From Chromatiaceae bacterium (GTDB taxonomy: Bacteria; Pseudomonadota; Gammaproteobacteria; Chromatiales; Chromatiaceae): a stretch of 64,000 bases of DNA. Within the stretch, counting starts at the first letter, position 1. The number at the start of each line of letters is the position of its first letter. Shown piece after piece: positions 20,942-39,149 of the stretch. Made by a program: the position numbers and the translations under genes. The stretch spans positions 7,703-71,702 of the forward strand of contig PWTO01000182.1 of the NCBI GenBank assembly GCA_003562815.1, read 5' to 3'. The notes below the pieces were generated by a model. It did not search any database. It saw only the letters and a program-made list of their open reading frames with translations, and was not told where the DNA came from.

Positions 20942-21106
20942 CGGCAGCCGTTAGCAATCGCGGCCAAGGAGCTAGCGACGCGCTACTGGCCATTGATGCG
21001 AGATGGCTGTTATCCGACGAGGCCTTTTGTTGATCTCCGTCGATAGCTATTTCGTTAAATCGTAATACGATTATATCGCGACACACTCGCACATATCCGG
21101 AGGTCA

Positions 21107-21964: not shown

Positions 21965-22003
21965 TCTTGATTCGATCCATCGAATCATGAGGAGGAATAG
22001 AAG

Positions 22004-22489
22004 ATGCCGACATTCGTCTATATGACCCGCTGCGATGGCTGTGGCCAATGTGTTGATATCTGTCCTTCGGACATCCTGCACATCGATCCCGTCACCCGGC
22101 GCGCCTACAACATCGAGCCCAATATGTGCTGGGAGTGCCTGCCCTGCGTCAAGGCTTGCCCGCAAAATGCCATCGACGTGCGTGGTTACGCGGACTTCGC
22201 CCCCTTGGGCCACTCGGTTCGGGTACGCCGTGACGAGGAAAAAGGCGTCATCGCCTGGCGGATCATCTTCCGCAACGGCCGCAAGGACATGGAGTTGCTG
22301 GCGCCGATCACAACCAAGCCCTGGCGGGAGCACATTCCAAAGCTCGCCGATGTGCCAGCACCCAGCCAAGAGATGCGCGATAGCCATCTGTTGTTCAACG
22401 AACCCAAGTACATTCGCATGGACGATGGCGGCTTGCACACGCTCAAGTCCAATGGGTTAAAGATGGTCGCCGGGGTGGAGAGTTACTAA
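22004..22489 (+). CDS. aprB: Adenylylsulfate (APS) reductase beta subunit
   Basis: MPTFVYMTRCDGCGQCVDICPSD... and CWECLPCVKACP ferredoxin motifs. AGGAGG RBS. Confidence 0.93.
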   Translation: MPTFVYMTRCDGCGQCVDICPSDILHIDPVTRRAYNIEPNMCWECLPCVKACPQNAIDVRGYADFAPLGHSVRVRRDEEKGVIAWRIIFRNGRKDMELLAPITTKPWREHIPKLADVPAPSQEMRDSHLLFNEPKYIRMDDGGLHTLKSNGLKMVAGVESY

Positions 22490-24351: not shown

Positions 24352-24368
24352 GATTAGGCTCATCTGGA

Positions 24369-24406
24369 GGCGTGGGTGCTCGCTTCGCGGGCTCCACGCC
24401 GTTTTG
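24369..24406 (+). terminator. Candidate intrinsic terminator after aprA
   Basis: Stem GGCGTGG (24369-24375) pairs with CCACGCC (24394-24400), followed by GTTTTG. Confidence 0.4.
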
Positions 24407-24423
24407 CACAAGAATCCCTGTGA

Positions 24424-24774
24424 ATGAATATCAACGATCTGACTGACGAAGAGGTACTTGAGATCGCGCATCCCCTGTGGGATGACCTGGTCAAGTATTC
24501 CAATGAGGGTGCTTACGGGAAATTCATCAAGAAATTCTCGTATGGCTTGTTACTTGGCCTCAATGAGGTGGAGCTGGGTAAACAATTCGCGCACAGTGAG
24601 CTGGCCCGCAACCTGGTCGAGGAGAGAGACTTTCTTGGGCTGATCAGGCGTGGCGAGCATGTCACGGCCCTCTACCGAGTGCGCAGCCAAGCACGCGAAG
24701 GCGAGTGGCTGGGGCGCATGGTCCTCGGTTACGAGAATGGAGACGTGAAGATCTTTGCCGCTTCGATTTTCTAA
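24424..24774 (+). CDS. Hypothetical protein (116 aa), visibly lower GC than its neighbours
   Basis: Clean ORF with protein-like composition (MNINDLTDEEVLEIAHPLWDDLVKY...). No recognised motif and no obvious RBS. Confidence 0.5.
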   Translation: MNINDLTDEEVLEIAHPLWDDLVKYSNEGAYGKFIKKFSYGLLLGLNEVELGKQFAHSELARNLVEERDFLGLIRRGEHVTALYRVRSQAREGEWLGRMVLGYENGDVKIFAASIF

Positions 24775-24778
24775 CGCG

Positions 24779-25306
24779 ATGAAACAGGCCAACCCACAAC
24801 GCATCGAGGACGACAAATTTGTCGAGCTGACCTATCGGGTCATCGATCAGAAGACCGAGGACGTGCTGACGACCGTGGACTTTCCGTTGGGTTATGTTCA
24901 GGGTCGTAACGCGGTGCTGGCGCCACAGGTGATGGCGGAACTCGACGGACGATCGGCGGGAGAGACGATCAGGATTCCGATCGATTGCACGGATCTCTAC
25001 GGTCCGCGCGACGAATCCTTGGTCATCACCGACCGGATCGACAACGTTCCTGTCGAGTACCGGGAAGTCGGGACCGAGATCCTCATGGAAAACGACAAGG
25101 GCGACACCAAGCGCTTCTTCGTCACCCGCATGGATGACAAGACGCTGACCATGGATGGCAACCATCCGCTGTGCGGCAGACAGGTCGTGTTCGAGCTTGA
25201 AATCCTAAGCGTGCGAGATGCGACTGAAGAAGAACTCATCGCAGGCGGCAAGGTGGACAGAGGCGCGGACACCGGCGGCCTCACGACCCGGCCGATCTGG
25301 GAGTAG
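24779..25306 (+). CDS. FKBP-type peptidyl-prolyl cis-trans isomerase (SlyD/FkpB-like)
   Basis: VELTYRV...DFPLGYV...M.ELDG...GNHPLCGRQVVFELEILSVRDAT is the FKBP core with an insert-in-flap pattern. Start taken at MKQANP. Confidence 0.8.
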   Translation: MKQANPQRIEDDKFVELTYRVIDQKTEDVLTTVDFPLGYVQGRNAVLAPQVMAELDGRSAGETIRIPIDCTDLYGPRDESLVITDRIDNVPVEYREVGTEILMENDKGDTKRFFVTRMDDKTLTMDGNHPLCGRQVVFELEILSVRDATEEELIAGGKVDRGADTGGLTTRPIWE

Positions 25307-25610
25307 GAAACAGTTTGCGCATCGCACCATAGACGTGCTCGTAGGTATTGGCGTTTTCACCGCAATGGATGAGTTCGTCGGCATCGGTGCGGAACGTCAA
25401 ATAGGGATGCACCTCGCGACCATCAACCTCAATCCCCGCGACATCGTCGATGACACCGGTAATGCTCAACGCGATGCTGGCGGTGAGGTCTTCTAGCTTC
25501 TCCTGCTCGACGCCCCCTTCTTGAAGCTTGATCTTGATTCTTGCGACGATCTCGCTGACGAAGATCGCCTGCTGCTCGTCGAATTGCGCGCCCGCCAACG
25601 TCAGTTTCAC
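25281..25610 (-). CDS. Hypothetical protein (109 aa)
   Basis: ORF with balanced, protein-like composition. Its 3' end overlaps the convergent FKBP gene by 26 nt. No family recognised. Confidence 0.45.
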   Translation of the reverse strand: MKLTLAGAQFDEQQAIFVSEIVARIKIKLQEGGVEQEKLEDLTASIALSITGVIDDVAGIEVDGREVHPYLTFRTDADELIHCGENANTYEHVYGAMRKLFPTPRSAGS

Positions 25611-25686
25611 GTTCTATACCTTGCATAAGCGAGCGGCCTAGCGAACGTTTCAGTTCACACGGCCGCCATGTTTCATGGGCGGCGTC

Positions 25687-25848
25687 TCAGGGTTTCTTTG
25701 GGGTCTGATAGGCGACTTCTTTCTGGAACTTTTCCCAAATCACCTCGTATCCAACATACCCCTTTTCATTCGGCTGCATCTGACGGGTCACGCAAAATCG
25801 GCTGTGGCCGTCGGGAACCTTGGGGCGCGTTTTCTTTTGATCGCTCAT
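25687..25848 (-). CDS. Small hypothetical protein (53 aa), absent from the ORF track
   Basis: Hand translation gives MSDQKKTRPKVPDGHSRFCVTRQMQPNEKGYVGYEVIWEKFQKEVAYQTPKKP with a TGA stop. A GAGAGG Shine-Dalgarno-like element lies about 7 nt upstream of the ATG. Confidence 0.4.
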   Translation of the reverse strand: MSDQKKTRPKVPDGHSRFCVTRQMQPNEKGYVGYEVIWEKFQKEVAYQTPKKP

Positions 25849-26009
25849 CAATAACCTCTCTGTGTAGAAGGCTAGTCCGGCTTATGCACGAGACAGCAAT
25901 CAGAAGCTATCCCGGCGGAACGCGTCTGTCAAGCCGCCGCAAGCCAATGCAACCTGGACAGAAACGGCTCGCTTCTCGCCGGCACACAGCGCTCGGCCCA
26001 GCGAGCCGA

Positions 26010-26528
26010 TCAGCGCTCGAGTTCCTGGATCTCGAAGCGCATCGTCTCGAGATCGCCGATCGCCCAGGTCGCCGCAGGCGCACCAAGCCCCGCGACCGTG
26101 CCCGGATTGACCAACCAGGTCTGCCCGCCTTTCACGGTCTCTTCCAGGCTCACGAGCGGCTCGTGGCTATGACCGCAGCAGACCAAGTCGTGATCGCCGG
26201 CGCGGGCGAAGGCCTGGCCGATGTGAGGATAATGCGTCATGAAGATCTTGCGGCCGCCGAGTTCCAGGCTCGCATCGTTACCGTAGTACTGGAGCAGCTC
26301 CTCGGACTCGCACGCCAGACGCGAGATGGAGACCGGATCGCCCAGGTTGTTGCCGTGGATCACATGAATCGGCAGGCCGAGCTTGAGCGAAGCGCGCAGG
26401 GTGTTGGTGCCGATCAGATCGCCACAGTGCAGCACGCATTCGGCGCCGCGCATCTTGGCCTCGGCGATCGCGGTGGCGAGCATGGGGCCGCGATCATGGC
26501 TGTCTGAGACGATACAGATCTTCATCAT
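26010..26528 (-). CDS. Metallophosphoesterase (YfcE/MJ0936 family)
   Basis: Motifs IVSDSHD, HCGDL, GNN and GHSH in the canonical order. 20 nt downstream of cysC on the same strand. Confidence 0.8.
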   Translation of the reverse strand: MMKICIVSDSHDRGPMLATAIAEAKMRGAECVLHCGDLIGTNTLRASLKLGLPIHVIHGNNLGDPVSISRLACESEELLQYYGNDASLELGGRKIFMTHYPHIGQAFARAGDHDLVCCGHSHEPLVSLEETVKGGQTWLVNPGTVAGLGAPAATWAIGDLETMRFEIQELER

Positions 26529-26548
26529 GAAAGCCCGGGGCGTTGGTG

Positions 26549-27211
26549 TTAACGGGTGGCGGATAGGATTCCACGCCTGATCAGATCGTCGATGACCTCG
26601 CCGGCGAGTTCCTCCGGCGTCCCTTTGCCCGCATGCAGGATGAGTTCAGGCCTTTCCGGTGCCTCGTAAGGATCATCGATGCCGGTGAAATGCTTGATCT
26701 CCCCGGCGCGCGCCTTCTTGTACAGGCCCTTGGGATCACGCTGTTCGCAGATCGCGAGGGGGGTGTCGACGAAGACCTCGATGAAGTCACCCTCGCGCAT
26801 CATCGCCCGCACCCGGTCGCGATCCACGCGGTAAGGGCTGATGAAGGCGGTCAGCGCAATGGTGCCGGAGTCGCAGAACAGTTGCGCGACGGCACCGATG
26901 CGGCGAATATTTTCTTCCCGATCGATGGCCGAAAACCCGAGCCCGAAACGCTCGGCATAGGCCTCGCCATGGGTCTCCCGGAGCATGCTAGGGCCGGCGT
27001 TGAGCCCGTGTCGCACATTGTCGCCATCGAGCACCGCGCTCTTCACGCCCCGGGCCGCGAGCATATGATCGACCACATTGGCAATCGTGCTCTTGCCCGA
27101 GCCGCTGAGGCCGGTAAACCAGATCACGCAGCCACGATGGCCGTGCAAACGCTCGCGCTCCTCGCGCGAGACCCGGTGATCGTGCCAAGTGACATTCGTA
27201 TCGTTCGCCAT
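26549..27211 (-). CDS. cysC: Adenylyl-sulfate (APS) kinase
   Basis: GLSGSGKSTIAN P-loop, LDGDNVRHGLN and FISPY motifs. Confidence 0.92.
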   Translation of the reverse strand: MANDTNVTWHDHRVSREERERLHGHRGCVIWFTGLSGSGKSTIANVVDHMLAARGVKSAVLDGDNVRHGLNAGPSMLRETHGEAYAERFGLGFSAIDREENIRRIGAVAQLFCDSGTIALTAFISPYRVDRDRVRAMMREGDFIEVFVDTPLAICEQRDPKGLYKKARAGEIKHFTGIDDPYEAPERPELILHAGKGTPEELAGEVIDDLIRRGILSATR

Positions 27212-27734: not shown

Positions 27735-29543
27735 TCAACGGGTCGCAGCCGGTTTGCCGGCGAAGATTGCCATCATACTGGCGGCGATCCGATGTCCAGC
27801 GGCGACGGCGGTGATCACGTCCGGTCCTTGGACCGCGTCCCCGGCTGCCCAGAGCCAGGGCTCGGAGGTGCGCCCGTCGGCATCGATCCGGATGCGGTTG
27901 CGTTCCCACTCCAGCGCCTCGGTCAGCGGTTCGCCTAGGAAGGCGTGATCCGCAGCCTGGCCGATGGCCTCGACGATCAGGCCAGCGTCGTGGAGCTGAA
28001 TGTCGCTGTCGTCGTAGTTCGGCGCGAAACGCCCCTGCTCATCGAAGACCGAGATACAGTGGACGGTCTCTAGCCCAATGACAGCGTCGCGCTCGATCAC
28101 GCACTGACGTGGACCGCGACTGGGGATGATCACAACGCCCTCCTCGCGCGCCTCGTCGATCTCCTCGCGGTCAGCGAGCATCAGGTCTTCGGCCTCAAGG
28201 GCGACCAGGGTAACGCCAACCTTGCCATGCTGCTGGCGCTGCATGCGCGCGAGGCTGCGGGCGATGTCCATGGCAACGTTGCCACCGCCGATGACGGCCA
28301 GGGTCTCTGGAACCTCGAAGCGCTCACCGAGGGTGATACGCCGCAGCAGCTCCACGGCGGAGACGACGTCCCGATGCTCGCTGCCGGGAATGCGCGTGGA
28401 GCGGCCTTGGTGCAGACCGATGGCGAGCAGCACGCTATCGTGCTGCGCGCGTAGTTGATCGATGCTGATGTCCTCGCCGACCCGGGTGCTGCAACGGATC
28501 TCGACCCCCATCGAGCGGATGACGTCGATGTCCTCATCGAGCTTGTCGTAAGGCAGTCGGTACTCCGGGATGCCGTAGCGCATCATGCCGCCGGGAGCGG
28601 GCTGGGCCTCGAACACCGTCACGCCATGACCGGCCTTGGCCAGATCGAAGGCGGCAGTGAGCCCTGCCGGTCCAGCCCCAATGATTGCGACCTGATGCCC
28701 GCTCGGCTCGCTGACGCGCCCCTCGGCGGCGATCTGCTTGATCCGATCGTGCGGAACCTGGTCGATGATGTGGCGCTTGAGCCAGCGGATGGCGATGGGA
28801 TCGCCCTCGTGGCGCGCCGCGCAGCTGGTCTCGCAGCGATGAGTGCAGACGCGCCCGCAGACATTGGAGAAGGGGTTGGTCTGATACAGCAGCCGCACGC
28901 CCTGCTCGTAGGCGCCATCGCGAATGGTGGCGATGTACTCGGGCACTGCCATGTGCGTCGGGCAGGTGGCGACGCAGAGGCCGCAGGAGACACAGCGGTC
29001 AGCCTCGAGCTTGGCCTGCTCGAGGTCGTAGCCGGCAACGATCTCGACGAAAGAATCGGCGCGCGCCTCTGGCTCGAGTTCGCCCATGTCCACGCGCTCG
29101 TTACCGGTAAGCCGATGTCCTTCGGGACGCCGGTAGCCAAGTTCGGCGCTGTCCCAGTGCTTCAGATCGACGCCGGGGGTGAAGCGAAACACCTCCGGGT
29201 CATGGTCCACCCACTTGTACTCGTTCGACATGCTCAGCGAGCTGGTCATGCAGACATCGACACAGAGCGCGCACCAGCAGCAGCGCCCATAGTCGATGCG
29301 CGGGCGCAGACCGGAGTCGCCGGGTTTGGTCGCGATCTCGGCGACCGCAACCATATCGATCGCCGCGTTCTGACAGATCGCCTCGCAGGTGCCGCAGCCG
29401 ATGCACTTCTCGACGTCGTTTTGGTGGAAACCGCGGTAGCGCGGCGCACCCGGTCGATCGTTGAGCGGATCAGGGATGGTGACCGGGTCGCGGAAGAGGT
29501 TCTTCCAGGCACTGAAGGGAGAAAGGACGTCGCTCAAGCTCAT
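27735..29543 (-). CDS. Fusion protein: NuoI/MbxN-like 2x[4Fe-4S] ferredoxin (N-terminal) plus GltD/NfnB/SudA-like NAD(P)H-dependent FAD oxidoreductase (C-terminal)
   Basis: N-terminal CIGCGTCEAIC and CCWCALCVDVC. Then CVSCGLCVATCP and CGRVCTHRCETSC (the GltD-type Fe-S region), VAIIGAGPAGLTAAFDL (FAD site) and LAVIGGGNVAMDIARS (NAD(P)H site). Last gene of the Mrp-Mbx-like operon. Confidence 0.85.
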   Translation of the reverse strand: MSLSDVLSPFSAWKNLFRDPVTIPDPLNDRPGAPRYRGFHQNDVEKCIGCGTCEAICQNAAIDMVAVAEIATKPGDSGLRPRIDYGRCCWCALCVDVCMTSSLSMSNEYKWVDHDPEVFRFTPGVDLKHWDSAELGYRRPEGHRLTGNERVDMGELEPEARADSFVEIVAGYDLEQAKLEADRCVSCGLCVATCPTHMAVPEYIATIRDGAYEQGVRLLYQTNPFSNVCGRVCTHRCETSCAARHEGDPIAIRWLKRHIIDQVPHDRIKQIAAEGRVSEPSGHQVAIIGAGPAGLTAAFDLAKAGHGVTVFEAQPAPGGMMRYGIPEYRLPYDKLDEDIDVIRSMGVEIRCSTRVGEDISIDQLRAQHDSVLLAIGLHQGRSTRIPGSEHRDVVSAVELLRRITLGERFEVPETLAVIGGGNVAMDIARSLARMQRQQHGKVGVTLVALEAEDLMLADREEIDEAREEGVVIIPSRGPRQCVIERDAVIGLETVHCISVFDEQGRFAPNYDDSDIQLHDAGLIVEAIGQAADHAFLGEPLTEALEWERNRIRIDADGRTSEPWLWAAGDAVQGPDVITAVAAGHRIAASMMAIFAGKPAATR

Positions 29544-29601
29544 CCGAATGTCTCGACTATCGTAGGAATTTCTTGAACCACAGATGACGCGAGTGAACCA
29601 T

Positions 29602-30777
29602 TCACCGTTCGATCTCGGGTGGATAGGTGTGCAAAGAGACCATCAGGGCGGCGACATCGGAGATGTTGCAATTGACGATCAGGCGTTCGAGCAAGGCCAT
29701 CGCATGCGTGTAGGACGGCCCGCGCACATTGACCCGGCGCGGGTAGCCGCTGCCATCGGTGACCAGGTAATAGCCATATTCCCCGCGTGAGCACTCGCCG
29801 CAGATGTAGGTCTCGCCGAAGGGGATCTTCCAGTGCAGGACGTTTGGCAGCGGCGCCATGACGGCCCCTGAGCGTGGCATCCGGGCCAGGATCTGGCGGA
29901 TCAGGTCCACCGACATCAGCAGGTCGCGGCGGCGCACATCGGCGCGCGTAAAGACGTCGGAGTCCTGCCCCACGACCGGCTCGAAATCGAGTTCGGGATA
30001 GACCAGATAGGGCTGATCCCTGCGCACATCCTTGGCCACACCGGCGGCACGCGCGGTGGGACCGGTGACGCCGTATTGATCGACGATCGCGGGGTCGATA
30101 TAGCCGAGCCCGACGGTGCGCTTCTTGAACACCGCGTTCTGGAACATGACATCCTTGACATCGGCGAGTGTGGATTCGATCTCCCGCAGGGTCTCCTCCA
30201 TGCGCTGGTCGAAGCCATCGGGCAGCCCGTCGCGCACCCCGCCGGGCATGATGAACATGTGGTAGATGCGCGCCCCACTCAGCTCCTCGAAGCGATCGAG
30301 CATCAAATCCCGAACATAGGTCGTCCACTGGCCGATGACGCCTTGGCCGAGCGCCCCCGCCTGGCCGCCGAGGTACATCAGATAGCTGTTGATGCGCCCC
30401 ATCTCCAGGATCAGGGTGCGTATCCAATCGGCCCGCTCCGGGACCTCGAGCCCGGCAAGCTCCTCGACTGCAGCGGCATAGCAGTACTCGTTGAAATCGG
30501 GCTCGGGAACGCAGATGCGGCAGACGATCGGGAAGCACTGGATGAAGGTGCGCCGCTCCATCAGCTTCTCGAAGCCGCGATGCAGATAGCCGACATGGGT
30601 CTTGCCCTCGACCACCTCATCGCCGCAGACGGTCAGCTCCACCGACATGTTGCCGGTGATGCCGGGATGCTGCGGCCCCTGCCAGAGCTTCAGATACTTG
30701 CCCGAGCTGAGGTCGATGTCCAGGCTGCCGTCGGGCCGGCGCGACGGGTATTGGCTGCGGTCTGCTTGATACGCCAT
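29602..30777 (-). CDS. NuoD / [NiFe]-hydrogenase large-subunit-like catalytic subunit lacking a complete NiFe site (MbxL/Ehr-like)
   Basis: HVGYLHRGFEKL signature. CRIC at the L1 position (30511-30522). The C-terminus reads HTYPPEIER where the CxxC L2 motif would be. An extra CGEC lies next to the RGE motif (29791-29802). Confidence 0.85.
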   Translation of the reverse strand: MAYQADRSQYPSRRPDGSLDIDLSSGKYLKLWQGPQHPGITGNMSVELTVCGDEVVEGKTHVGYLHRGFEKLMERRTFIQCFPIVCRICVPEPDFNEYCYAAAVEELAGLEVPERADWIRTLILEMGRINSYLMYLGGQAGALGQGVIGQWTTYVRDLMLDRFEELSGARIYHMFIMPGGVRDGLPDGFDQRMEETLREIESTLADVKDVMFQNAVFKKRTVGLGYIDPAIVDQYGVTGPTARAAGVAKDVRRDQPYLVYPELDFEPVVGQDSDVFTRADVRRRDLLMSVDLIRQILARMPRSGAVMAPLPNVLHWKIPFGETYICGECSRGEYGYYLVTDGSGYPRRVNVRGPSYTHAMALLERLIVNCNISDVAALMVSLHTYPPEIER

Positions 30778-30790
30778 CTGATACGCCCTC

Positions 30791-31336
30791 TTAGGCCCCG
30801 TCCGGGTAGAGCTGTGCTTTCATGTGCTGGGCCGGGTCCTGGCTCTCACGCCCTGGGCGCGGCGCGAAGGTCTCGTTGGAATACTTCAGGGTGTCGAAAT
30901 CGCGCCGATAGGGCGGGATCTCGCGCCAGCCTTCGAGGATGAAGTCCTCGTTGACGCCGGGGCTGTCGGGGAAGTCGATGCCGAACATCTCGCGCAGCTC
31001 GCGTTGATAGGTCGCAGCGGTCGGCCAGAGATCGTGGATGCTCTCCATCGGCGCGCCTTCGATCACCGCTTGGCGCGAGAGCATCACCCGCAGCCCGATG
31101 TCGCGGGCGCCTTGGCGGTCGTGCAAGAGATAGGTGAGCTGGAAGCGATCGTCCTCGATCCAATCGACCGCCGTCAGCAGCACCAAATGGGTGAAGCCCT
31201 CCTGGTCGCGCAAATGCAGCAAGACCGGCCGCAGTTGTTCCCTGGGCAGGGTGATAAAGGCCAGATCGGGGCGCTTCTCGCTCAGCTCGCCGAGCGGGAA
31301 TCGGCCCTTCAGTTGTTCATAGAGTTCGCGCAGCAT
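30791..31336 (-). CDS. NuoC-like subunit (MbxK-like)
   Basis: ~180 aa with LLTAVDW...ERE..DMFGI-type pattern (LLTAVDWIEDD, YQRELREMFGIDF). Start at MLRELYEQL avoids overlap with the upstream gene. Confidence 0.8.
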   Translation of the reverse strand: MLRELYEQLKGRFPLGELSEKRPDLAFITLPREQLRPVLLHLRDQEGFTHLVLLTAVDWIEDDRFQLTYLLHDRQGARDIGLRVMLSRQAVIEGAPMESIHDLWPTAATYQRELREMFGIDFPDSPGVNEDFILEGWREIPPYRRDFDTLKYSNETFAPRPGRESQDPAQHMKAQLYPDGA

Positions 31337-31344
31337 CGGTGCAG

Positions 31345-32040
31345 CTACCAGTTGTAATCGGGCATGTCCCAATCATGGATCACGCGCTTCTGGTTCGCCT
31401 TGTACCAGTCGAAGCGTTCGGCATATTGATTGGCTCCTTCACCCTTGCCGGCGCGGACGATGCGCTTGAGTTCCTCGAAGCCGGCCAGCAACGCCTCAGG
31501 CCGAGGCATGCAGCCAGTGATATAGACATCCACCGGCAGGTACTCATCAAGGCGGGTAATGGTGTTGTACGAATCGAAGTACATGCCGCCATTGATCGTG
31601 CAGGAGCCGAGTCCGACCACATATTTCGGGTTCGGCATCTGTTCGTAGGAGCGAATCACCCGCTTCAGGGTCTTCACCGACAGATAGCCTGAGATCACGA
31701 ACAGGTTCGATTGCCTCGGGGTTGGCCGCCATTGAATGCCATAACGGTACGCGTCGAAGCGCGGCGTCATCAGCGGCCGCATCTCGATCGCCCCGCAGCC
31801 GGTGCCGAAGCCTAAAATCCAGAGCGATTCGGCCCGCGCCCAGTTGAACAGCCCCTCGATGATCTTGCTGTAAGCCGCAGGCATCACCGTCGGGGGCGCC
31901 TCGCAGTAATAGTCGCGCAGCGGCTCGACCTCGAACTCGACGCCGTCCGGTCCCTTGACCAAGCGGCGCCTCAGCTCTTCTTTCACCGGCGCGTGCTCGA
32001 TCAGGTCGTCGTCTAGGAGGTCTTCGTTTGTCTGCGTCAT
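31345..32040 (-). CDS. NuoB-like [4Fe-4S] subunit (MbxJ-like) with an acidic N-terminal extension
   Basis: GTGCGAIEM, GLGSCTINGG and TGCMPRPE motifs, with Cys82-Cys147-Cys177 spacing of 65/30 as in NuoB. The first Cys of the tandem CC is Gly here. Confidence 0.85.
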   Translation of the reverse strand: MTQTNEDLLDDDLIEHAPVKEELRRRLVKGPDGVEFEVEPLRDYYCEAPPTVMPAAYSKIIEGLFNWARAESLWILGFGTGCGAIEMRPLMTPRFDAYRYGIQWRPTPRQSNLFVISGYLSVKTLKRVIRSYEQMPNPKYVVGLGSCTINGGMYFDSYNTITRLDEYLPVDVYITGCMPRPEALLAGFEELKRIVRAGKGEGANQYAERFDWYKANQKRVIHDWDMPDYNW

Positions 32041-32053
32041 CTGCAGTTGCTCC

Positions 32054-32959
32054 TTAAGCGATCATGATGGCGATCACGCCCAGCGGTACGGCCCAGATCA
32101 AGAACCAGCGAATCGACTGCTCGACCCGGAAGCGCGGGAAGACGACACCCACGATGACCGAGACCAGATAGATCAGAAACACCTTGAGAAAGAACGCCGG
32201 CCAGCTCGCCGCACCGCCAAAGAACAGATTCATGTAGATCACAATCTTGGCAATCGGGAAGATCGCACGATTGGTCTGCATCAGGGCGAGGTAGGACGAG
32301 TGGTACTCGGTCGGCGGTCCGATCGGGATCTCCTGCGGCGCCAGGACGACATCGAACGGCGGGCGCATCATCGTGCCGAGGAACGAGAGCATCGCTGCGG
32401 CGACCGCGATCGGGTTCGTAAACAGGGTCCACTGCAGGATGCCGCCCTGCTGCGCGGCGACGATCTCGGTCACCGAGAGGGTCTGATACTGCACCGCGAC
32501 CGCGTAGACGGCCAACGCGAACGGCAGCTCGGCGGCGGTCACCTGCGACAGCCCGCGGGTGACGCCGATCGCCGAATACGGATGGCCGCTTTCGCCGGCG
32601 CCCAGCGCCATGCCCAGGGAGCCGAAAAAGACGAAGTAGAGCGCCAGGATGAGGTCACCGGCGAAGGACATGTTCGAGAACATCTCGGTGCCGTAGAGGG
32701 TCGGCACGAACATCAGCAGACCGACGCCGCCAGTGAGCCGAAACACCGGGCCCATATAGAACATCACGCCATGGGTGATGGAGCTGCGCAGGCCGTAGTT
32801 CTTGATCAGGTCGAGGTAATTCTGCCAGACCGGGATGCCGTGCCGGCGTCCGACTCGGGCCGCGATCTTGGCCATCACCGCCGTCAGCAGGAAGCCATAG
32901 TTGGCGACGATGAACAAGGTCAGCAGCGCATAGGGGATCTTGATCCATTCGAACGACAT
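32054..32959 (-). CDS. NuoH-like membrane subunit (MbxM-like)
   Basis: 301 aa, polytopic, with a NuoH/HyfC-like pattern. Positioned between the antiporter modules and the NuoB-like gene. Confidence 0.75.
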   Translation of the reverse strand: MSFEWIKIPYALLTLFIVANYGFLLTAVMAKIAARVGRRHGIPVWQNYLDLIKNYGLRSSITHGVMFYMGPVFRLTGGVGLLMFVPTLYGTEMFSNMSFAGDLILALYFVFFGSLGMALGAGESGHPYSAIGVTRGLSQVTAAELPFALAVYAVAVQYQTLSVTEIVAAQQGGILQWTLFTNPIAVAAAMLSFLGTMMRPPFDVVLAPQEIPIGPPTEYHSSYLALMQTNRAIFPIAKIVIYMNLFFGGAASWPAFFLKVFLIYLVSVIVGVVFPRFRVEQSIRWFLIWAVPLGVIAIMIA

Positions 32960-32961
32960 GG

Positions 32962-35900
32962 TTAGAGCCCTGTCCGCAGGAGGTAGACGACCACGACGAA
33001 CGCCAGCAACTGGATCGCGTACGTTTGTCCGTTACCGGTGTAGAGCCGGCGCAGCAGGTCGGCACTGGCGTGCAAGAGATCGACGATAGCGGCCCAGAAG
33101 CGTTCGACCAGCGGCTCGGTGAGGAAACCAAGCGCCTTGCGGTAGGGCGCGAAGAAGTTCCAGGCGAAATGCGTGGTCTCCGGTCGGAAGGGCCGCTCGC
33201 CGGCAAAGACGATATTGAACTGCTTGACCTTTTGCGCCTTGCGGTTGACGAAGACCAGCCAGGCGAACAGGCTCGCGAAGATCACGCCGACCACGATCAT
33301 GATCGAGATCGGGCTCCAGTAGCCGAAGGCGCTGGTGATGGTGAGGCCCTCCCAGCCCAGGGCGCCCTCGGGATGGAACTGACTGATGTAGGCATCGACC
33401 CGCCGCAACGCGAGCCCAGGAACCAGTGCGAACGCCATCAGACAGGCGACGAAGATCATCTGCGGCAGCACCAGCCAGAACGGTGCCTCCTTGATACGCC
33501 GGTGCTCGTCCTTGAGCTGGCCTAGGAAGATGGTATGGATCAGGCGGAACAGATACAGGAACGCAATCGGCCCCGAGATGAAGATCAGAATCATCGGCAG
33601 CCGGGAGTCGGTCGTCAGGATGGCGTTGTAGAAGATCCAACGCCCACCGAAGCCCGACAAGGGCGGCACGCCGGACATGGCGATGATGCCGATCAGCACC
33701 GCGATGAACGACAGCGGCATCAGGGTGATCAATCCCCCCATCCGATACATGTCACGGGTGCCAGTGCGTTTGGCGACACCGCCGACCGAGAGGAACAGCA
33801 TCGATTTATAGATGTAGTGGTTGATCACGAACATCAGCGCCATGAGCCAACCGAGATGGTTCATCATCGCCAGGCCGAACAACGCATAGCCCATCTGGCC
33901 GATCGACGAATAGGCCAGCAGGCGCTTGGCATCCTCCTGGAACGCGGCCATCAGGTTGCCGATCAGCGCCGAGAGCGCACCGATCCAGAGCAGGATGTGG
34001 GTCAGCTCGACCCCATAGAGCTGCTGGCTGCCCATGGCCATGAACAGGACGAAGAGCCCAAACAGGCCGGCCTTGAGCAGGATGCCCGAGACCATCGGCG
34101 AGACATCGGTCTCGGCCTCGGCGTGAGCGCCCGGCAGCCAGATGTGCAGGCCGACGGCTGCGGTCTTGGTCATGAAGCCGATGGCCAAGAGCAGGAAGAC
34201 CCAGGGTGCCAAGGGGGCGGCGACCTGCTTCAGGCCCGCGAGCGTAAACAGCGGATCACCGTCCGCCGCCAGCGCGAATCCGGCCAGGATCAGGAAGGCG
34301 CCGGCGAGGGAAAACACCATGTACGAGAGCGCATGCGGCTCGGAGCGCTGGCCGCGCAAGATCAGGAAATAAGAGCCGATGGTGAGCGATTCCCAGGCGG
34401 CGAAGAAGCCGAAGGCGTCTTCGGCCACGATCAGCATCGCCAGACCGGCGTACATCAGCATCGCCGAGGGGTAGAAGCCGATGCGCCGCCCCTGGGTCTG
34501 ATAGCTCGCGAGCAGGATCAAGGCGCCACCGATCAGCATCACCGCAGCAAAGATCAACTGCAGCGGATCGTAACTGGGTAGGCTCAGCACGAACCAGGCG
34601 ACCAGCCCGGCGATGGCGAGGCTGTTCTTGATCTGGACCGACAGCGGTTCGAGCACCAGGAAGCCGAACGCGAACAGCAGCGGTACGGCCAGCAGTAGAT
34701 TGCCATTGAGCGAGAGGGCGCCCCAGATCAAGCCCAGGCCCCAGCCAGCAGCCACTGCGGTCAGGATCACCGCGCGCTTGAACGACGACACCGCAACAGG
34801 CTCCGGTGCGCGCTCGCGTTTGAGTGCGCGCCCAAACCATCGGAACAGATAGCCGGCCTCCAGCAAGGCACCGAACAGGATCAATCCGATCAGGGCGATA
34901 CGTCCCTCGCCGGCCAGCGCGATGACCAGCTCCCACTTCGCGTAGAAGCCTGGGAACGGCGGCAGACCGACCAGCAGGGCGATGAAGCTGGCGAAGGCGA
35001 AGATCAGGATCGGATGGCCCTGCAGGGCGCTCCAAGCCGTCAGCGTGCGCCCCTCAATCAGGCCAGACAGCCAATAGAGGCCGGCCTTGGCCACGGCGTG
35101 GGCTAGCAGGATACCGCCGGCAATGAACAGGTAGCGATCACCGAGCAGGTCGCGCTGGCCGATCACCGCCAAGATCAGGCCGATCTGGGCCACCGAGGAG
35201 TAGCCCAACAGGCGCCGGTCATTGCGTTGGGCCAAGGCAAACAGATTGGCACCGACGAAGCCAACGATGCCGATACCGGTGGCCAGCGGAAGCCAGGTCG
35301 AGCCGCCGATCAGCAGCAGCTTATCGGCGGCAAAGAGCGCGGCTGACCCCGAGGCCGCCGAGAGCATCGCCGAGAACGCCGGGTGTGCCGACTCGTAGAC
35401 ATCCAGCGCCCAGCCATTGGCCGGGAACGGCTTCAGGTCCAGAACAATGGCGATGAACATCAGGAAGAAGGCCAACCCGCCGCCCTTGAGCACCAGCGAT
35501 GACACCTCGGCCATGCCGTCGATGTTGAGCGTGCCGGTGGCATGGTAGGCGAAAATAATGCCCACCAGCAGCAGGATCGTGATGACCTGGGAGGCGACCA
35601 GGTACTTGAATCCGGCGGCCAAGGCGCGCTTGTCGCGCGAGAGCAGCACCAGCCCGCCGGTGGCGATGGCGACCAATTCGAAGAAGACGAACAGGTTGAA
35701 CAGATCGCGGGTCAGGACGATGCCGCAGGCCGCCATCGTGAAGATCAGCAGCACGGCCAGCGCACGCCGACCTTGATTGAACATGGTGTCGCGCAGGTAG
35801 ACCGCCGAGAGCAGGCCGGTCAGGTTGATCGATAGGGTCAGGACCGCCTCGGCCAGGCCCATACGCAGGTTGATCGCATACGGCGGCAGGGTTCCGGCGG

Positions 35901-36087
35901 TCGTGATGTCCACCGCGCTGCCGTCCCCGGAGGCCAGCACCCAGACCCAGCCGGCGGAAATCAGGCTCATGCAGGCGAGCGCCGCGAGGCTGACGCCGTA
36001 GGCGCCGGCGCGCCACTCATCGCGCAGCAATCCGAGCAGGAACGCGGCCCCGAGGCCGACCGCAAGGATATAAAGAGCGCTTACCAT
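32962..36087 (-). CDS. Fused tandem antiporter-like subunits (two MrpD/NuoN-type modules in one 1041-aa polypeptide; MbxH+H'-like)
   Basis: Two separate copies of the family signature: GYSSVAQIGLILAVIG in the first half, and WESLTIGSYFLIL plus AYSSIGQMGYALFGLA in the second. Confidence 0.8.
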   Translation of the reverse strand: MVSALYILAVGLGAAFLLGLLRDEWRAGAYGVSLAALACMSLISAGWVWVLASGDGSAVDITTAGTLPPYAINLRMGLAEAVLTLSINLTGLLSAVYLRDTMFNQGRRALAVLLIFTMAACGIVLTRDLFNLFVFFELVAIATGGLVLLSRDKRALAAGFKYLVASQVITILLLVGIIFAYHATGTLNIDGMAEVSSLVLKGGGLAFFLMFIAIVLDLKPFPANGWALDVYESAHPAFSAMLSAASGSAALFAADKLLLIGGSTWLPLATGIGIVGFVGANLFALAQRNDRRLLGYSSVAQIGLILAVIGQRDLLGDRYLFIAGGILLAHAVAKAGLYWLSGLIEGRTLTAWSALQGHPILIFAFASFIALLVGLPPFPGFYAKWELVIALAGEGRIALIGLILFGALLEAGYLFRWFGRALKRERAPEPVAVSSFKRAVILTAVAAGWGLGLIWGALSLNGNLLLAVPLLFAFGFLVLEPLSVQIKNSLAIAGLVAWFVLSLPSYDPLQLIFAAVMLIGGALILLASYQTQGRRIGFYPSAMLMYAGLAMLIVAEDAFGFFAAWESLTIGSYFLILRGQRSEPHALSYMVFSLAGAFLILAGFALAADGDPLFTLAGLKQVAAPLAPWVFLLLAIGFMTKTAAVGLHIWLPGAHAEAETDVSPMVSGILLKAGLFGLFVLFMAMGSQQLYGVELTHILLWIGALSALIGNLMAAFQEDAKRLLAYSSIGQMGYALFGLAMMNHLGWLMALMFVINHYIYKSMLFLSVGGVAKRTGTRDMYRMGGLITLMPLSFIAVLIGIIAMSGVPPLSGFGGRWIFYNAILTTDSRLPMILIFISGPIAFLYLFRLIHTIFLGQLKDEHRRIKEAPFWLVLPQMIFVACLMAFALVPGLALRRVDAYISQFHPEGALGWEGLTITSAFGYWSPISIMIVVGVIFASLFAWLVFVNRKAQKVKQFNIVFAGERPFRPETTHFAWNFFAPYRKALGFLTEPLVERFWAAIVDLLHASADLLRRLYTGNGQTYAIQLLAFVVVVYLLRTGL

Positions 36088-36437
36088 TTCAGATCCTTGA
36101 ACGCGGAGATATCGAGGGTGCGTTTGGTCTCGTAGAGCTTGTACACATAAGCGAGCATCAGGGCTGTGACGCCGACGCCGATCACGATCGCCGTGAGCAC
36201 CAGGGCTTGAGGCACCGGATCGATAATGCGCGCGACGGCCTCGGCGACCGGCACCGCCTCATCGAGAATCGGCGCCGTGCGCCCGTGCATGTAGCCCACG
36301 GCGACCATGACCAGGTTGACCCCGGTGTTGGCCACGGTGAAGGCGACGATCATGCGCAGGATGTTGCGATTGGTCAGCGCTCCGAAGAGCCCGATCAGAA
36401 TCAAGACAAAGCCAGTGGTCATGGCGATATAGGCCAT
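36081..36437 (-). CDS. MrpC/MnhC (NuoK-like) subunit
   Basis: 118 aa, three TM helices. Overlaps both neighbouring genes. Confidence 0.75.
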   Translation of the reverse strand: MAYIAMTTGFVLILIGLFGALTNRNILRMIVAFTVANTGVNLVMVAVGYMHGRTAPILDEAVPVAEAVARIIDPVPQALVLTAIVIGVGVTALMLAYVYKLYETKRTLDISAFKDLKW

Positions 36438-37150
36438 CAGAGATCCTCCGTCTCGGACAGATTCGCCAGCATCGAGGAGAACTCCGCGCCGACCTTGAGG
36501 CCGATGAAGGAGTAGACGATCGGGATCGCCCCCGCCGAAAAGAGTGCGCCCAGGCTGCCGATGGGTAGGATGCGGTTGTCGAGGAACCCGCCTGCGAAGA
36601 AGATGCCGAGCACGCCGATACCGACGAAGACCAGACCGGCGGTGGACTCGATGGTGGCGATCAGACCGTGACTGATGCGCCGTAGCGGATCGGTCAGGAG
36701 CAGCAGGAGAATCGCCGAGGCGAGGATGGCCCCGCCTTGGAATCCACCCCCCGGGGTCAGATGCCCATTCACAAAGACATACACGCCGAGCAACAGAATC
36801 AGCGGAACCAACAACTGGGTGCCGGTGGTGAGCAGCTCGCCCGCCGGTGGCAGCTCGCGCCCCGACCCCTCGCCCTCGCGATGGCCGTGCGACAGCACCA
36901 GGCCGACGATGGCGGCGGTGAGGAACAGCACCGTGACTTCGCCGAGCGTATCGAGACCCCGAAAGGTGACGATGATGGCCGTGACGATGTTGGCCGCACC
37001 GATGTCCTGGGCGGTGTGCTCGGCGTAGTAGCGAGCGCTGAGATTGAGCGCGTCATTGGGGGTGTAGCCGCCCACAAGCCCTGCGAAGATGGCGCCGAGC
37101 CCGAGCAGCAGCAGGATGACGAACAGGCGCCTAATCACGTTCGCCTCCAC
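36437..37150 (-). CDS. MrpB/MnhB-like subunit
   Basis: GAANIVTAIIVTFRGLDTLGEV motif typical of the MnhB domain. GTG start. Confidence 0.75.
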   Translation of the reverse strand: MEANVIRRLFVILLLLGLGAIFAGLVGGYTPNDALNLSARYYAEHTAQDIGAANIVTAIIVTFRGLDTLGEVTVLFLTAAIVGLVLSHGHREGEGSGRELPPAGELLTTGTQLLVPLILLLGVYVFVNGHLTPGGGFQGGAILASAILLLLLTDPLRRISHGLIATIESTAGLVFVGIGVLGIFFAGGFLDNRILPIGSLGALFSAGAIPIVYSFIGLKVGAEFSSMLANLSETEDL

Positions 37151-37388
37151 GCACCCGTCCGAGGACGAAGAAAAATAGGAAGGTGGTCAGGCCACTGCCA
37201 ATCGCGGCCTCGGTCATGGCCACATCCGGGGCGGCCAGCAGTAGATACTGAACCGAGGCCAAGAGGCTCACCAGCCCGGCGGCGAGGATAGCGATGGCCA
37301 GGCTTTGGCGCCCGCGCGTGGCCAGGATCGCCGCCGCCACCATGGTGACGCTCAGCAGCAGGCTCATCTCGATCAGCAATGCGCTCAT
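37131..37388 (-). CDS. DUF4040-type small membrane subunit (MrpA C-terminal / MbxD-like)
   Basis: 85 aa, three TM helices, APDVAMTEAAIGSGL motif. Positioned between the MrpG and MrpB homologues. Confidence 0.65.
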   Translation of the reverse strand: MSALLIEMSLLLSVTMVAAAILATRGRQSLAIAILAAGLVSLLASVQYLLLAAPDVAMTEAAIGSGLTTFLFFFVLGRVRGGERD

Positions 37389-37723
37389 GGCTGCTCTCCT
37401 TGGTCTTCTGCGAGCCGGTCGATCACGGTCTGCGGGGCTTGTTTGACGCCGACTCGATGCGCCGCGCGAGCCAGCACCTGCGACGACAGCGGGTTGGTGA
37501 AGAGCAGAAAGACGCCAATCAACAGCAGGGTCAGCCCCCAGTCCGGGCGCAGGCAGGCAACCCCGGCCAGGGTCAGCAGGGGGCCCAAGGTCGTGGACTT
37601 GGTGCCGGCCTGAATACGATTGTAGGCATCGGGCATACGCACCAAGCCAATCCCGCCGGACAGAAGGAAGGCGGTCCCACCGACGAGCAGGATGGCTCCG
37701 AGCAGATCGAGAACCGAGGCCAT
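37385..37723 (-). CDS. MrpG/MnhG subunit
   Basis: GGIGLVRMPDAYNRIQAGTK motif characteristic of MnhG. Confidence 0.8.
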   Translation of the reverse strand: MASVLDLLGAILLVGGTAFLLSGGIGLVRMPDAYNRIQAGTKSTTLGPLLTLAGVACLRPDWGLTLLLIGVFLLFTNPLSSQVLARAAHRVGVKQAPQTVIDRLAEDQGEQP

Positions 37724-37983
37724 CAGAATCCCCTTTCGATGTAGCGGGCGACGACGATCACGCCGAGGAAGGAGAGCAAGGCGTAGACCAGGGCGACGTC
37801 TAGGTAGATGCCGCGTCCCTCGGCCAGCGCCGCCAGCGCAATCCCGGTAATGCTGACGATGGTGAGGCTGTCAAACGCAATGATGCGATCGACCGCCGTT
37901 GGACCCGCGATAAAGCGCCAGAGCGCGAGCAGGAAGGCGATTCCCGCGATGGTCGCAGCCAGATAGATGAGGAACTCAACCAT
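37723..37983 (-). CDS. MrpF/MnhF subunit
   Basis: 86 aa from MVEFLIYL, with the GPTAVDRIIAFDSL motif. Confidence 0.75.
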   Translation of the reverse strand: MVEFLIYLAATIAGIAFLLALWRFIAGPTAVDRIIAFDSLTIVSITGIALAALAEGRGIYLDVALVYALLSFLGVIVVARYIERGF

Positions 37984-38494
37984 AGATGACCTCGAGATAG
38001 CGCTCGAAACCGGCGACGATCTCGGCGGTGGCCCCCTCGACATCGGTGGACTCAACACTCACCCAGTGCACGTACAGCCACTCGCCCTCCATCTCGACGG
38101 TGAGGGTGCCGGGCGTCAGGGAGATCGAGTTGGCGAGCATCAGTCGCCCCATGCGGCTTTTCAGCGTGGTGCGCACCTTCACGATACCAGGCTTGATCGG
38201 TAACGATGGGGACAAAACGATGGTGGCCAGCCTGAGGTTAGACTTCACCAGCTCCTTGAAGAACAGGCCGTAGTAGCGCAGTCCCGCGACGAACGCCTTA
38301 GGTGTGGCGCGAAATTCGGTGAAGAACGAGAGGCCACTCGGGAACAACAGCGCGATGGCCAGAGACGCCATGGCCCCGACGATGAGAACATCGACCGTCA
38401 CCCGGCCCATCAGCATGAGCCAGAACAACAAAAGGGTCGCGAACATCACCGCGACGCGTCGGATTCGCGGTATGGTTTCGCCTTTCGCTACCAT
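37976..38494 (-). CDS. MrpE/MnhE subunit (first gene of the Mrp-Mbx-like operon)
   Basis: SISLTPGTLTV motif of MnhE. GAGGGGG RBS 5 nt upstream of the ATG at 38494. Confidence 0.75.
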   Translation of the reverse strand: MVAKGETIPRIRRVAVMFATLLLFWLMLMGRVTVDVLIVGAMASLAIALLFPSGLSFFTEFRATPKAFVAGLRYYGLFFKELVKSNLRLATIVLSPSLPIKPGIVKVRTTLKSRMGRLMLANSISLTPGTLTVEMEGEWLYVHWVSVESTDVEGATAEIVAGFERYLEVIYG

Positions 38495-38627: not shown

Positions 38628-39149
38628 TCAGACGCCGCCGCTGTGCACCGTCTCGTAGTAGAGCTTCTCCAAGGCTTCCTTATGCTTGGCCTCTTCGTTG
38701 GCGAGGTACTCGAAAAGTTCTTTGAAGGGCCCCGCTGGCGCGCTGTCAGCGAGCGAGCGGTAGTGCGTCATCGCGAGATGCTCGCGGCTCATGGCGTACT
38801 GCAGCACCGCTTGATCATCCGGATGCTCGCCGAGGTCGGGCGTCATCACCGCCTCGGCGAACTTGCCGTCTGTGACCGGGCGTTCCACTTCGGCCTTGAT
38901 CTGATCCTCGATGTCGTCGCGCGCCGCCAGTGCCGTGAACAGTTCGTAGTGGCCCTGCTCCTCGTTCGCCAATTCCTCGGCGAGCCAGCGGAAGTTCTTG
39001 CTAACTTTCGGGATCAGATCGGTGTAGAAGTTGCGCGCACTTTCCTCGAAAGACGTCGCGACGCTGAGCACAGCGTCTAGCGTCGTCATGGAACGGATGC
39101 GCTCGTAGCTGGACTGTTGACCCTCAAGTGGGTCGGGCGTTGCTTTCAT
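38628..39149 (-). CDS. Ferritin-like di-iron protein (rubrerythrin-family four-helix bundle)
   Basis: Two E-x-x-H motifs (NEEQGHYELF and NEEAKHKEAL) in repeated helical halves. Start uncertain (39149 or 39089). Confidence 0.65.
   Translation of the reverse strand: MKATPDPLEGQQSSYERIRSMTTLDAVLSVATSFEESARNFYTDLIPKVSKNFRWLAEELANEEQGHYELFTALAARDDIEDQIKAEVERPVTDGKFAEAVMTPDLGEHPDDQAVLQYAMSREHLAMTHYRSLADSAPAGPFKELFEYLANEEAKHKEALEKLYYETVHSGGV

Follow-up and report, generated by a model that had tools for sequence, protein, structure and literature searches.

A bacterial MBS-type membrane complex operon with a fused flavoprotein predicted to oxidise NADH

A 64,000-nucleotide stretch of a Chromatiaceae genome assembly (contig PWTO01000182.1, positions 7,703 to 71,702; hereafter the window) carries on its minus strand an operon that, judged by the sequences of its products, contains an intact set of genes for a membrane complex of the type of the Pyrococcus furiosus membrane-bound sulfane reductase (MBS), with a built-in flavoprotein predicted to oxidise NADH. 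The operon is one more member of a family that has already been noticed, that is widespread, and that is biochemically uncharacterised. To what was known of this family, sequence comparison adds a three-cysteine catalytic site that is essentially invariant across bacteria, a split of the flavoprotein into predicted NADH and NADPH types, a relocated gene for a diiron protein, and the breadth over which the arrangement is conserved. We propose that the complex acts as an ion-translocating NADH:sulfane-sulfur oxidoreductase, possibly a reversible one, a proposal that we are about as ready to accept as to doubt.

Results

Kinship of the window operon with MBS

The operon consists of twelve co-directional open reading frames (ORFs) between positions 27735 and 38575, which either overlap by 1-20 nt (at 36081-36087, 36437, 37131-37150, 37385-37388, 37723, and 37976-37983) or are separated by short gaps. 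The ORFs were assigned to families with Pfam, and the nearest solved structures were obtained by a search of the PDB chains. These analyses bear out the twelve tightly packed genes described in the original prediction, with their positions, overlaps, and identities (Table 1); a thirteenth gene, described below, had been missed. The gene order is that of an Mrp module followed by H-H'-M-J-K-L-N, in which the NuoH homologue precedes those of NuoB, NuoC, NuoD, and NuoI. Judged from the ORFs and their Pfam assignments, genes for the NuoE, NuoF, and NuoG input module are absent.

Every subunit tested is closest, among solved structures, to its counterpart in the P. furiosus MBS (PDB 6U8Y), and this by wide margins. 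The NuoD-like subunit, which is 43% identical to MbsL, scores 319 bits against this protein, compared with 213 for Nqo4, 149 for MbhL, and 113 for HycE, while the NuoB-like subunit scores 217 bits against MbsJ over 164 residues (next best 136), and the NuoH-like subunit 139.6 bits against MbsM (next best 54). The 1041-residue protein combines the equivalents of both MBS pumps, its N-terminal half (residues 6-260) matching MbsH (6u8y_H) with 136 bits and its C-terminal half (residues 456-1033) matching MbsH' (6u8y_X) with 193 bits. Finally, residues 6-110 of the last gene product score 80.5 bits against MbsN (6u8y_N) versus 55.8 bits against NuoI (8e9g_I). The earlier assignment of the operon to the Mbx/MBS type, rather than to the Mbh or nuo type, is thus upheld, with MbsL, MbsJ, MbsM, and MbsH/MbsH' as the best solved-structure matches.

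The catalytic site

In the P. furiosus MBS, polysulfide reduction has been attributed to the proximal [4Fe-4S] cluster of MbsJ, which has only three cysteine ligands (C28, C93, and C123) because a shortened loop puts C25 out of reach; the unique iron of this cluster is lost on ferricyanide treatment and regained with Fe2+, the pocket has been argued to suit the cleavage of internal S-S bonds, and the two NiFe cysteines that MbsL retains out of four, C85 and C385, are dispensable for activity (PMC7684303). The NuoB-like subunit of the window has the motif GFGTGCGAIEM where MbsJ has AFCTGCGGIEM and complex I has a tandem CC. From this alignment the three cluster ligands are therefore C82, C147, and C177, each of which aligns with an MbsJ ligand, and the position of MbsJ C25 is occupied by Gly79. 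Hardly any variation was seen in this single-cysteine motif, G[TS]GCG, or at the other two cysteines among the approximately 80 bacterial homologues that were aligned, and about 76 of them have the motif without exception.

The NuoD-like subunit keeps only the first L1 cysteine of the four NiFe ligands (C89, equivalent to MbsL C85), with a tyrosine at the position of MbsL C385, and between none and two of the four are kept across homologues. Hydrogenase large subunits are recognised by the motifs RxCGxCxxxH (L1) and DPCxxCxxH/R (L2); the corresponding regions of the window protein read CRICVPEPDF, with one cysteine, and HTYPPEIER, with none, and the Pfam NiFeSe_Hases model gives 16.9 bits, under its cut-off. 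In addition, the equivalents of the quinone-ligating residues His38 and Tyr87 of Nqo4 are Thr41 and Val90. With both the NiFe ligands and the quinone-site His/Tyr pair missing, the subunit is neither a hydrogenase nor a canonical quinone reductase. The former conclusion had been drawn in the original prediction, for which intact L1 and L2 motifs would have been a contrary finding; neither motif is intact. The same prediction had also allowed for a quinol as electron donor to NAD(P)+, which the Thr41/Val90 pair and the MBS-like three-cysteine cluster of the NuoB-like subunit make unlikely.

The flavoprotein input module

The product of the last gene combines a NuoI/MbsN-like domain with two [4Fe-4S] clusters (residues ~1-120) and a GltD/NfnB/SudA-like module with two further [4Fe-4S] clusters, flavin adenine dinucleotide (FAD), and an NAD(P)H site (residues ~150-602). 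Residues 148-596 match the NfnB structures 4ylf_B and 5jca_L, with E-values of 1e-60 to 1e-72 for NfnB/SudA/GltD flavoproteins, so that Pfam and PDB matches agree with the fusion reported earlier. The NCBIfam model NF010590/PRK13984 ("putative oxidoreductase") covers residues 4-590; the score of 866 bits falls a little short of the curated cut-off, which is 946. All four Fe-S motifs, the FAD motif GAGPAG, and the second Rossmann motif GGGNVAMD are conserved in the alignment of homologues.

The strand that follows the second Rossmann motif reads VTLVALE in the window protein versus V(Y/W)I(V/L)YRR in Thermotoga maritima NfnB and P. furiosus NfnI-L. ALE thus replaces the NADPH-binding YRR, and a six-residue insertion precedes beta2. 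By textbook criteria, an enzyme that ends beta2 with an acidic residue instead of two arginines prefers NAD(H) to NADP(H), and on this basis we predict that the fusion protein uses NADH rather than NADPH.

In a scan of one genome per species, at least 600 pattern matches were obtained and at least 591 species encode a candidate relative; from the best ~80 genomes of these candidates, 83 homologous loci (L001-L083) were taken as a synteny sample. Their fusion proteins fall, in the region of residues ~430-460 (window numbering), into an acidic subtype with the pattern ARLQKQQYG..VT.TALE[DS] and the six-residue insertion (41 members, including the window, most Proteobacteria, and many Bacteroidales and Spirochaetes) and a YRR subtype with the NADPH-type pattern RRLG..VTILYRRR (34 members, ~45% of the sampled homologues). 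Both occur within the Gammaproteobacteria, the Bacteroidales, and the Spirochaetes, and the acidic type was met in none of the solved GltD/NfnB-type structures that were matched. A gene for an NfnA/SudB or GltB partner is neither adjacent in the window nor recurrent among the flanks of the 83 loci. Of the features of NfnAB, SudAB, and GltBD enzymes, the cluster and FAD motifs are therefore present, and the YRR site and the partner subunit are missing.

The ferritin-like diiron gene

The thirteenth gene encodes a protein of the rubrerythrin family that lacks a rubredoxin domain, whose PDB matches are only the COG1633-type proteins 2fzf and 1vjx. It carries the full E/ExxH/E/ExxH ligand set and is 81% identical to the product of a Thiohalocapsa gene that lies directly downstream of the fusion gene, which together make it an orthologue of the downstream gene found elsewhere, moved to the 5' end of the operon. 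In at least 33 other loci, which comprise both nucleotide-site subtypes and many phyla, a diiron homologue follows the fusion gene immediately and in the same orientation, usually with an overlap of 4 nt (as in Thiohalocapsa, Gallionella, and Magnetovirga). A rubrerythrin remnant was looked for downstream of the window fusion gene and none was found. Stand-alone rubrerythrins of 174-175 residues share a 90%-identity cluster with the 602-residue fusion protein, to which they have no sequence relationship, so this cluster is either bridged by a read-through fusion-rubrerythrin member or is a clustering artefact.

Table 1. Genes of the operon and its surroundings in the window
Feature	Positions	Strand	Evidence or remark
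NuoI/MbsN-like::GltD/NfnB/SudA-like fusion, 602 aa	27735-29543	minus	Pfam 2x Fer4 + Fer4_20 + Pyr_redox_2
NuoD/MbsL-like subunit	29602-30777	minus	Pfam Complex1_49kDa; 6u8y_L 3e-94
NuoC/MbsK-like subunit	30791-31372	minus	Pfam Complex1_30kDa 2e-24
NuoB/MbsJ-like subunit, proximal [4Fe-4S]	31345-32040	minus	Pfam Oxidored_q6; 6u8y_J 3e-63
NuoH/MbsM-like membrane anchor of the peripheral arm	32054-32959	minus	Pfam NADHdh; best PDB match 6u8y_M
Fused pair of antiporter-like pumps, 1041 aa	32962-36087	minus	Two Pfam Proton_antipo_M stretches; MbsH + MbsH' halves
MrpC/NuoK-like subunit	36081-36437	minus	Pfam Oxidored_q2 8e-23
MnhB + MbhE-like subunit	36437-37150	minus	Pfam MnhB 5.5e-23, MbhE 1e-8
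MbhD/DUF4040-like subunit (MrpA C-terminal-type)	37131-37388	minus	Pfam MbhD 8e-16
MrpG-like subunit	37385-37723	minus	Pfam PhaG_MnhG_YufB 2e-23
MrpF-like subunit	37723-37983	minus	Pfam MrpF_PhaF 1e-16
MrpE-like subunit, mbsA position	37976-38494	minus	Pfam MNHE 3e-37; longest ORF to 38575
Ferritin-like diiron-carboxylate protein, 173 aa, 13th gene	38628-39149	minus	Pfam Rubrerythrin; directly upstream of mrpE
cysC	26549-27211		0.5 kb downstream of the operon's last gene (lower coordinates)
sat-aprM-aprB-aprA	19739-24351		End 3.4 kb from the operon

Distribution and recurrent neighbours

The identical twelve-gene order was found in every locus with a long enough contig (~80 genomes, at least ten phyla). 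The best 80 genomes belong to Alpha-, Beta-, and Gammaproteobacteria, Spirochaetota, Bacteroidota, Cloacimonadota, Chlorobiota, Acidobacteriota, Calditrichaceae (Calditrichota), Fermentibacteraceae, Neomarinimicrobiota, and Melioribacter. The NuoI::GltD fusion is a single ORF in 76 of the 77 loci where both halves were detected, and the MbsH and MbsH' equivalents are fused in nearly all loci. More than 120 cluster representatives match the fusion protein over its full length at an identity of at least 66%; their sources are Thiohalocapsa, Rhodoferax, Gallionella, Sideroxyarcus, Nitrosomonadales, Azonexus, Magnetovirga, Candidatus Thiodiazotropha, and Rhodobacterales. Cluster mates of the window proteins come from Halochromatium, Lamprobacter, and other Chromatiaceae, in line with the purple sulfur bacterium recognised as the host in the original prediction; the special significance for purple sulfur bacteria or sulfur oxidisers that had been read into the operon is not borne out by so broad an occurrence.

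When the window was compared with loci L001-L003, the NuoD-like subunits of the window Chromatiaceae, a Gallionella (Betaproteobacteria), and Magnetovirga proved 87-94% identical and the fusion proteins only 67-73%, a gap that indicates either that the pocket subunit is unusually constrained or that it was transferred horizontally in recent times.

Some neighbours recur outside the core operon. In 12 Bacteroidota (Bacteroidales) loci (L026, L027, L028, L036, L039, L040, L045, L047, L049, L057, L061, and L083), a DHO_dh-like gene for an FMN (flavin mononucleotide) TIM-barrel protein of ~330 residues follows downstream on the same strand. It recalls PreT/PreA and DPD, where a GltD-like module is accompanied by a dihydroorotate-dehydrogenase-like domain; it may provide an additional acceptor module or simply be a neighbour without a functional connection. 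A Crp/Fnr-type regulator with an N-terminal cysteine motif is encoded divergently upstream in 12 Bacteroidales loci, and a Rex-type redox-sensing repressor adjoins the operon in four loci of anaerobes (L020, L045, L049, and L073), which suggests that in anaerobes the operon is controlled by the NADH/NAD+ ratio or by anaerobiosis. A gene for a CBS-domain protein lies downstream in eight loci.

Further features of the window

The likely start of mrpE, at 38494, is preceded by the ribosome-binding site GAGGGGG; scans for promoters, terminators, and FNR boxes around the operon ends gave nothing usable. The plus strand shows a strong positive AT skew of 0.2-0.3 over 32000-38000, where the membrane-subunit genes lie. 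This fits T-rich hydrophobic codons on the coding minus strand, and the skew is a compositional by-product, with no separate feature behind it. In the interval between aprA and cysC (24351-26549) the GC content dips to 0.57, versus ~0.64 elsewhere; it contains a gene for a SlyD/FKBP-type peptidyl-prolyl isomerase (24755-25306), and two ORFs at 24424-24774 and 25668-26507 had no family match. Two long ORFs overlap on opposite strands, at 15066-17690 (plus, 874 aa, no Pfam match) and at 15798-17786 (minus, 662 aa).

Discussion

Proposed mechanism and energetics

In the mechanism that we propose, NADH would pass a hydride to the FAD of the GltD-like module, from which electrons would travel through the two [4Fe-4S] clusters of its N-terminal domain and the two of the NuoI-like domain to the three-cysteine proximal [4Fe-4S] cluster of the NuoB-like subunit. 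As in MBS, the free iron of this cluster would then bind polysulfide or persulfide and split its S-S bonds reductively, within a pocket to which the NuoD-like and NuoH-like subunits would also contribute (the J, L, and M interface), and the reaction would power ion translocation by the fused pair of MrpD-like pumps together with the Mrp Na+/H+ module. The diiron protein may be an accessory to this site; although we speculate here, its most likely role is that of a protector or repairer of the unique iron of the oxidant-labile three-cysteine cluster.

The standard potentials are -320 mV for NADH and about -270 mV for S0/HS-. At 0.1 mM sulfide we estimate that the sulfur couple lies at about -150 mV, leaving a driving force of ~170 mV or ~30 kJ per two electrons, enough for about two ions at 150 mV. 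Since the NADH/NAD+ and polysulfide/sulfide potentials are close, the enzyme would work near equilibrium, with its direction set by the membrane potential and the sulfide level. These energetics keep alive two possibilities raised in the original prediction, namely an NAD(P)H-driven, ion-pumping reductase of sulfane sulfur, which would account for the dark reduction of stored sulfur in Chromatiaceae, and a membrane-potential-driven NAD(P)+ reductase with a sulfur donor. An NADH-reoxidising role fits with the Rex (4 loci) and Crp/Fnr (12 loci) neighbours. Taken further, the complex might be a reversible, membrane-potential-coupled sulfide/polysulfide:NAD+ oxidoreductase that, given light and sulfide, supplies purple sulfur bacteria and other lithoautotrophs with NADH directly and independently of quinones, and that conserves energy by reducing stored sulfur to sulfide in the dark, with the diiron protein maintaining the catalytic iron; as a whole, we regard this extended scheme as quite doubtful.

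Several observations weigh against an NADH:sulfane-sulfur oxidoreductase. Under standard conditions we estimate the driving force from NADH at only ~50-60 mV, far below that from ferredoxin in the archaeal enzyme, and yet the arm with two pumps and an Mrp module has been retained. Chromatiaceae store their sulfur globules in the periplasm, whereas the pocket of MBS is oriented towards cytoplasm and membrane, so that the substrate would need to be soluble in the membrane or be imported as persulfide. The substrate is deduced solely from the homology of the catalytic site. Residues 1-58 of the NuoB-like subunit form an extension, absent from MbsJ, with a DY[YF]C motif that includes Cys46, which in its carriers could be a fourth ligand or a redox-active thiol. 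Of 79 homologues, 51 have this cysteine and 20 have Ser, Leu, Ala, or Gln instead; it is therefore no universal fourth ligand, but may matter in the subfamily of the window. Among the named matches, the purple sulfur carriers are Halochromatium, Lamprobacter, and Thiohalocapsa, and Allochromatium, the classic organism for dark sulfur reduction, was not met, which is no proof of its absence. The carriers also include aerobes of the Roseobacter group, Gallionellaceae, Burkholderiales, and Lysobacterales, without an obvious sulfur-reducing lifestyle. Finally, the proximity of cysC and sat-aprMBA, the distances of which had been given correctly in the original prediction and offered there as a clue to sulfur metabolism, is of no help: when the window CysC, AprA, RecC, FKBP, and orf279 proteins were compared with the 83 loci by tblastn, a single cysC match and no aprA were found. 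The vicinity is therefore incidental and no evidence for a sulfur link, and the argument from the sulfur neighbourhood was dropped.

Alternative explanations

The same chemistry could run mainly in reverse in the phototroph of the window, the membrane potential driving electrons from sulfide or polysulfide uphill to NAD+, which would yield NADH without the quinone pool or reverse complex I and corresponds to the sulfur-donor possibility above. We think this unlikely as the main direction. The couples are close enough that, by our estimate, two to three ion-translocating sites at ~150 mV would push the reaction backwards at millimolar sulfide on an energised membrane, and many carriers of NADH-type, rubrerythrin-linked operons are lithoautotrophs in need of reverse electron flow (Chromatiaceae, Thiodiazotropha, Gallionellaceae, Nitrosomonadales, and Magnetovirga). 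However, we know of no experimental precedent for sulfide oxidation at the iron of a [4Fe-4S] cluster, which counts against this direction, and the complex is equally common in fermentative anaerobes that have to dispose of NAD(P)H (Bacteroidales, Cloacimonadota, and Spirochaetota), with Rex and Fnr regulators adjoining the operon in anaerobes. Expression in T. maritima and in strain 3DAC moreover ties the complex to S0 reduction (PMC9431562, PMC10356935). The three-cysteine cluster might instead reduce another substrate, such as an organic disulfide or trisulfide, a peroxide, or a small oxidant, with the diiron protein taking part in the reaction or in detoxification. Such a substrate would sit well with the broad distribution, which includes aerobes and microaerophiles without sulfur respiration, and the large pumping arm would make more sense with an acceptor of higher potential. 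The diiron gene is translationally coupled to the fusion gene in at least 33 loci of many phyla. Members of another NCBIfam family, PRK12775, join a GltD-like module to a ferritin domain, a hint of a recurrent functional link. Against these points stand a J-type subunit with 217 bits over 164 residues and all three ligand cysteines, an L-type subunit 43% identical to that of MBS, a pocket argued for MBS to suit internal S-S cleavage (PMC7684303), and the fact that the sole available expression data point to S0, so that we judge a different substrate distinctly unlikely.

Two further alternatives place the reaction elsewhere in the complex or change its acceptor. On the older model of Mbx, adopted in PMC4758237 and in a Mesotoga preprint, gltD-containing operons encode an ion-translocating, Rnf-like ferredoxin:NAD(P)+ oxidoreductase, and indeed the NuoI-like domain could still dock ferredoxin, and NfnB-like modules connect NADPH and ferredoxin in Nfn enzymes. 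That model predates the demonstration that Mbx is a sulfane reductase, and it confines electron transfer to the distal part of the peripheral arm, bypassing the proximal cluster and pocket where complex-I-type coupling occurs. As it also leaves the strict conservation of the three cysteines unexplained, and no NfnA-like partner is found among the recurrent flanking families of the 83 loci, we consider it very improbable for the window complex. Still less credible, to the point that we would be surprised to see it confirmed, is a non-canonical NADH:quinone oxidoreductase, or its reversal from quinol to NAD+. In its favour, the subunits appear in NCBI annotation as NADH-quinone oxidoreductase B, D, and H, and the overall architecture does resemble complex I, but the Nqo4 His38/Tyr87 equivalents are Thr41/Val90, the NuoB-like subunit has no tandem-cysteine N2 motif, and every pocket subunit resembles its MBS counterpart far more than that of complex I.

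Relation to earlier descriptions

Operons of this kind were described by Degli Esposti in 2015 as mbx-like, partial nuo operons that incorporate mrp genes, in Thermotoga, Magnetococcus, and proteobacteria, with a gltD-related flavoprotein in the position of NuoI and often ending with rubrerythrin; the author followed the earlier view of Mbx and took the gltD-containing operon for a ferredoxin:NAD(P)+ system (PMC4758237). The window operon shows each of these traits, from the mrp genes and NuoH-B-C-D homologues to the gltD-type protein in the NuoI position and a rubrerythrin-like gene. The architecture was already known from this description, and the fusion protein is modelled by NCBIfam NF010590/PRK13984. 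The accompanying statement that no fused bacterial member has been characterised agrees with our literature search, in which neither purification nor assay of such a member was found; searches for Mbx in genera of iron or sulfur oxidisers, and for membrane-bound sulfane reductase together with NADH, fusion, or proteobacteria, gave no paper on the complex. In T. maritima, mbxA is induced 4.4-fold by S0, and also by thiosulfate, and MBX was assumed, without an assay, to be a ferredoxin-dependent sulfur reductase (PMC9431562). The deep-branching bacterium strain 3DAC up-regulates MBS on S0 (PMC10356935). In the sulfur-oxidising symbiont of Riftia, a putative Mrp-Mbx complex shares co-expression neighbours with the reductive tricarboxylic acid (rTCA) cycle, hydrogenases, V-ATPase, and sulfur-globule proteins, and is listed without an assigned function or direction (PMC11636981). 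A mention of "Mbx" in Chlorochromatium was set aside because it refers to another gene cluster, which is Hyf-like and has six genes.

Machines of the complex I type hold a central place in bioenergetics, and MBS is a proposed evolutionary link from membrane hydrogenases to complex I. An NAD(P)H dehydrogenase unrelated to NuoEFG would represent a second, independent wiring of nicotinamide cofactors to such a pump. Genome annotation still labels the subunits "NADH-quinone oxidoreductase", which a known substrate and direction would correct; they would also clarify how fermenters and lithotrophs balance NADH, and might identify the enzyme for anaerobic reduction of stored sulfur in sulfur bacteria.

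Comparison with known systems

The closest characterised system is the P. furiosus MBS (formerly Mbx; PDB 6U8Y; PMC7684303), with which the window operon shares the subunit set and the gene order and, in the encoded complex, the three-cysteine proximal cluster, the two antiporter-like pumps, and the lack of a NiFe site. In contrast to MBS, where ferredoxin donates electrons through a stand-alone MbsN, the MbsN equivalent of the window is extended by a GltD/NfnB-like FAD/Fe-S/NAD(P)H module of ~450 residues, and the predicted donor is NADH. The window complex further differs in having the MbsH and MbsH' equivalents in a single polypeptide, Gly at the non-ligand Cys25 of MbsJ and Tyr at Cys385 of MbsL, a ~58-residue N-terminal extension of the NuoB-like subunit, an attached ferritin-like diiron gene, and a mesophilic bacterial host.

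With complex I (NDH-1) and the group 4 [NiFe] hydrogenases (MBH and FHL), the window complex shares the ancestry of the NuoB/C/D/H/I and antiporter-like subunits. Its predicted NADH input is a further likeness to complex I, from which it differs in lacking NuoE/F/G, NuoA, NuoJ, the tandem-cysteine N2 motif, and the quinone-site His/Tyr pair, and in an unrelated NADH module, based on a GltD-like FAD protein rather than on the FMN protein NuoF. From the hydrogenases it is set apart by the loss of the L1 and L2 NiFe motifs. The NfnB, SudA, and GltD small subunits (4YLF_B and 5JCA_L) have the cluster, FAD, and second Rossmann motifs in common with the window module, which departs from them in its fusion to a NuoI-type di-cluster domain and in the change from YRR to ALE. 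From their published description, the mbx-like operons of PMC4758237 appear to belong to the same family as the window operon; in the window, the rubrerythrin-like gene lies at the 5' rather than the 3' end.

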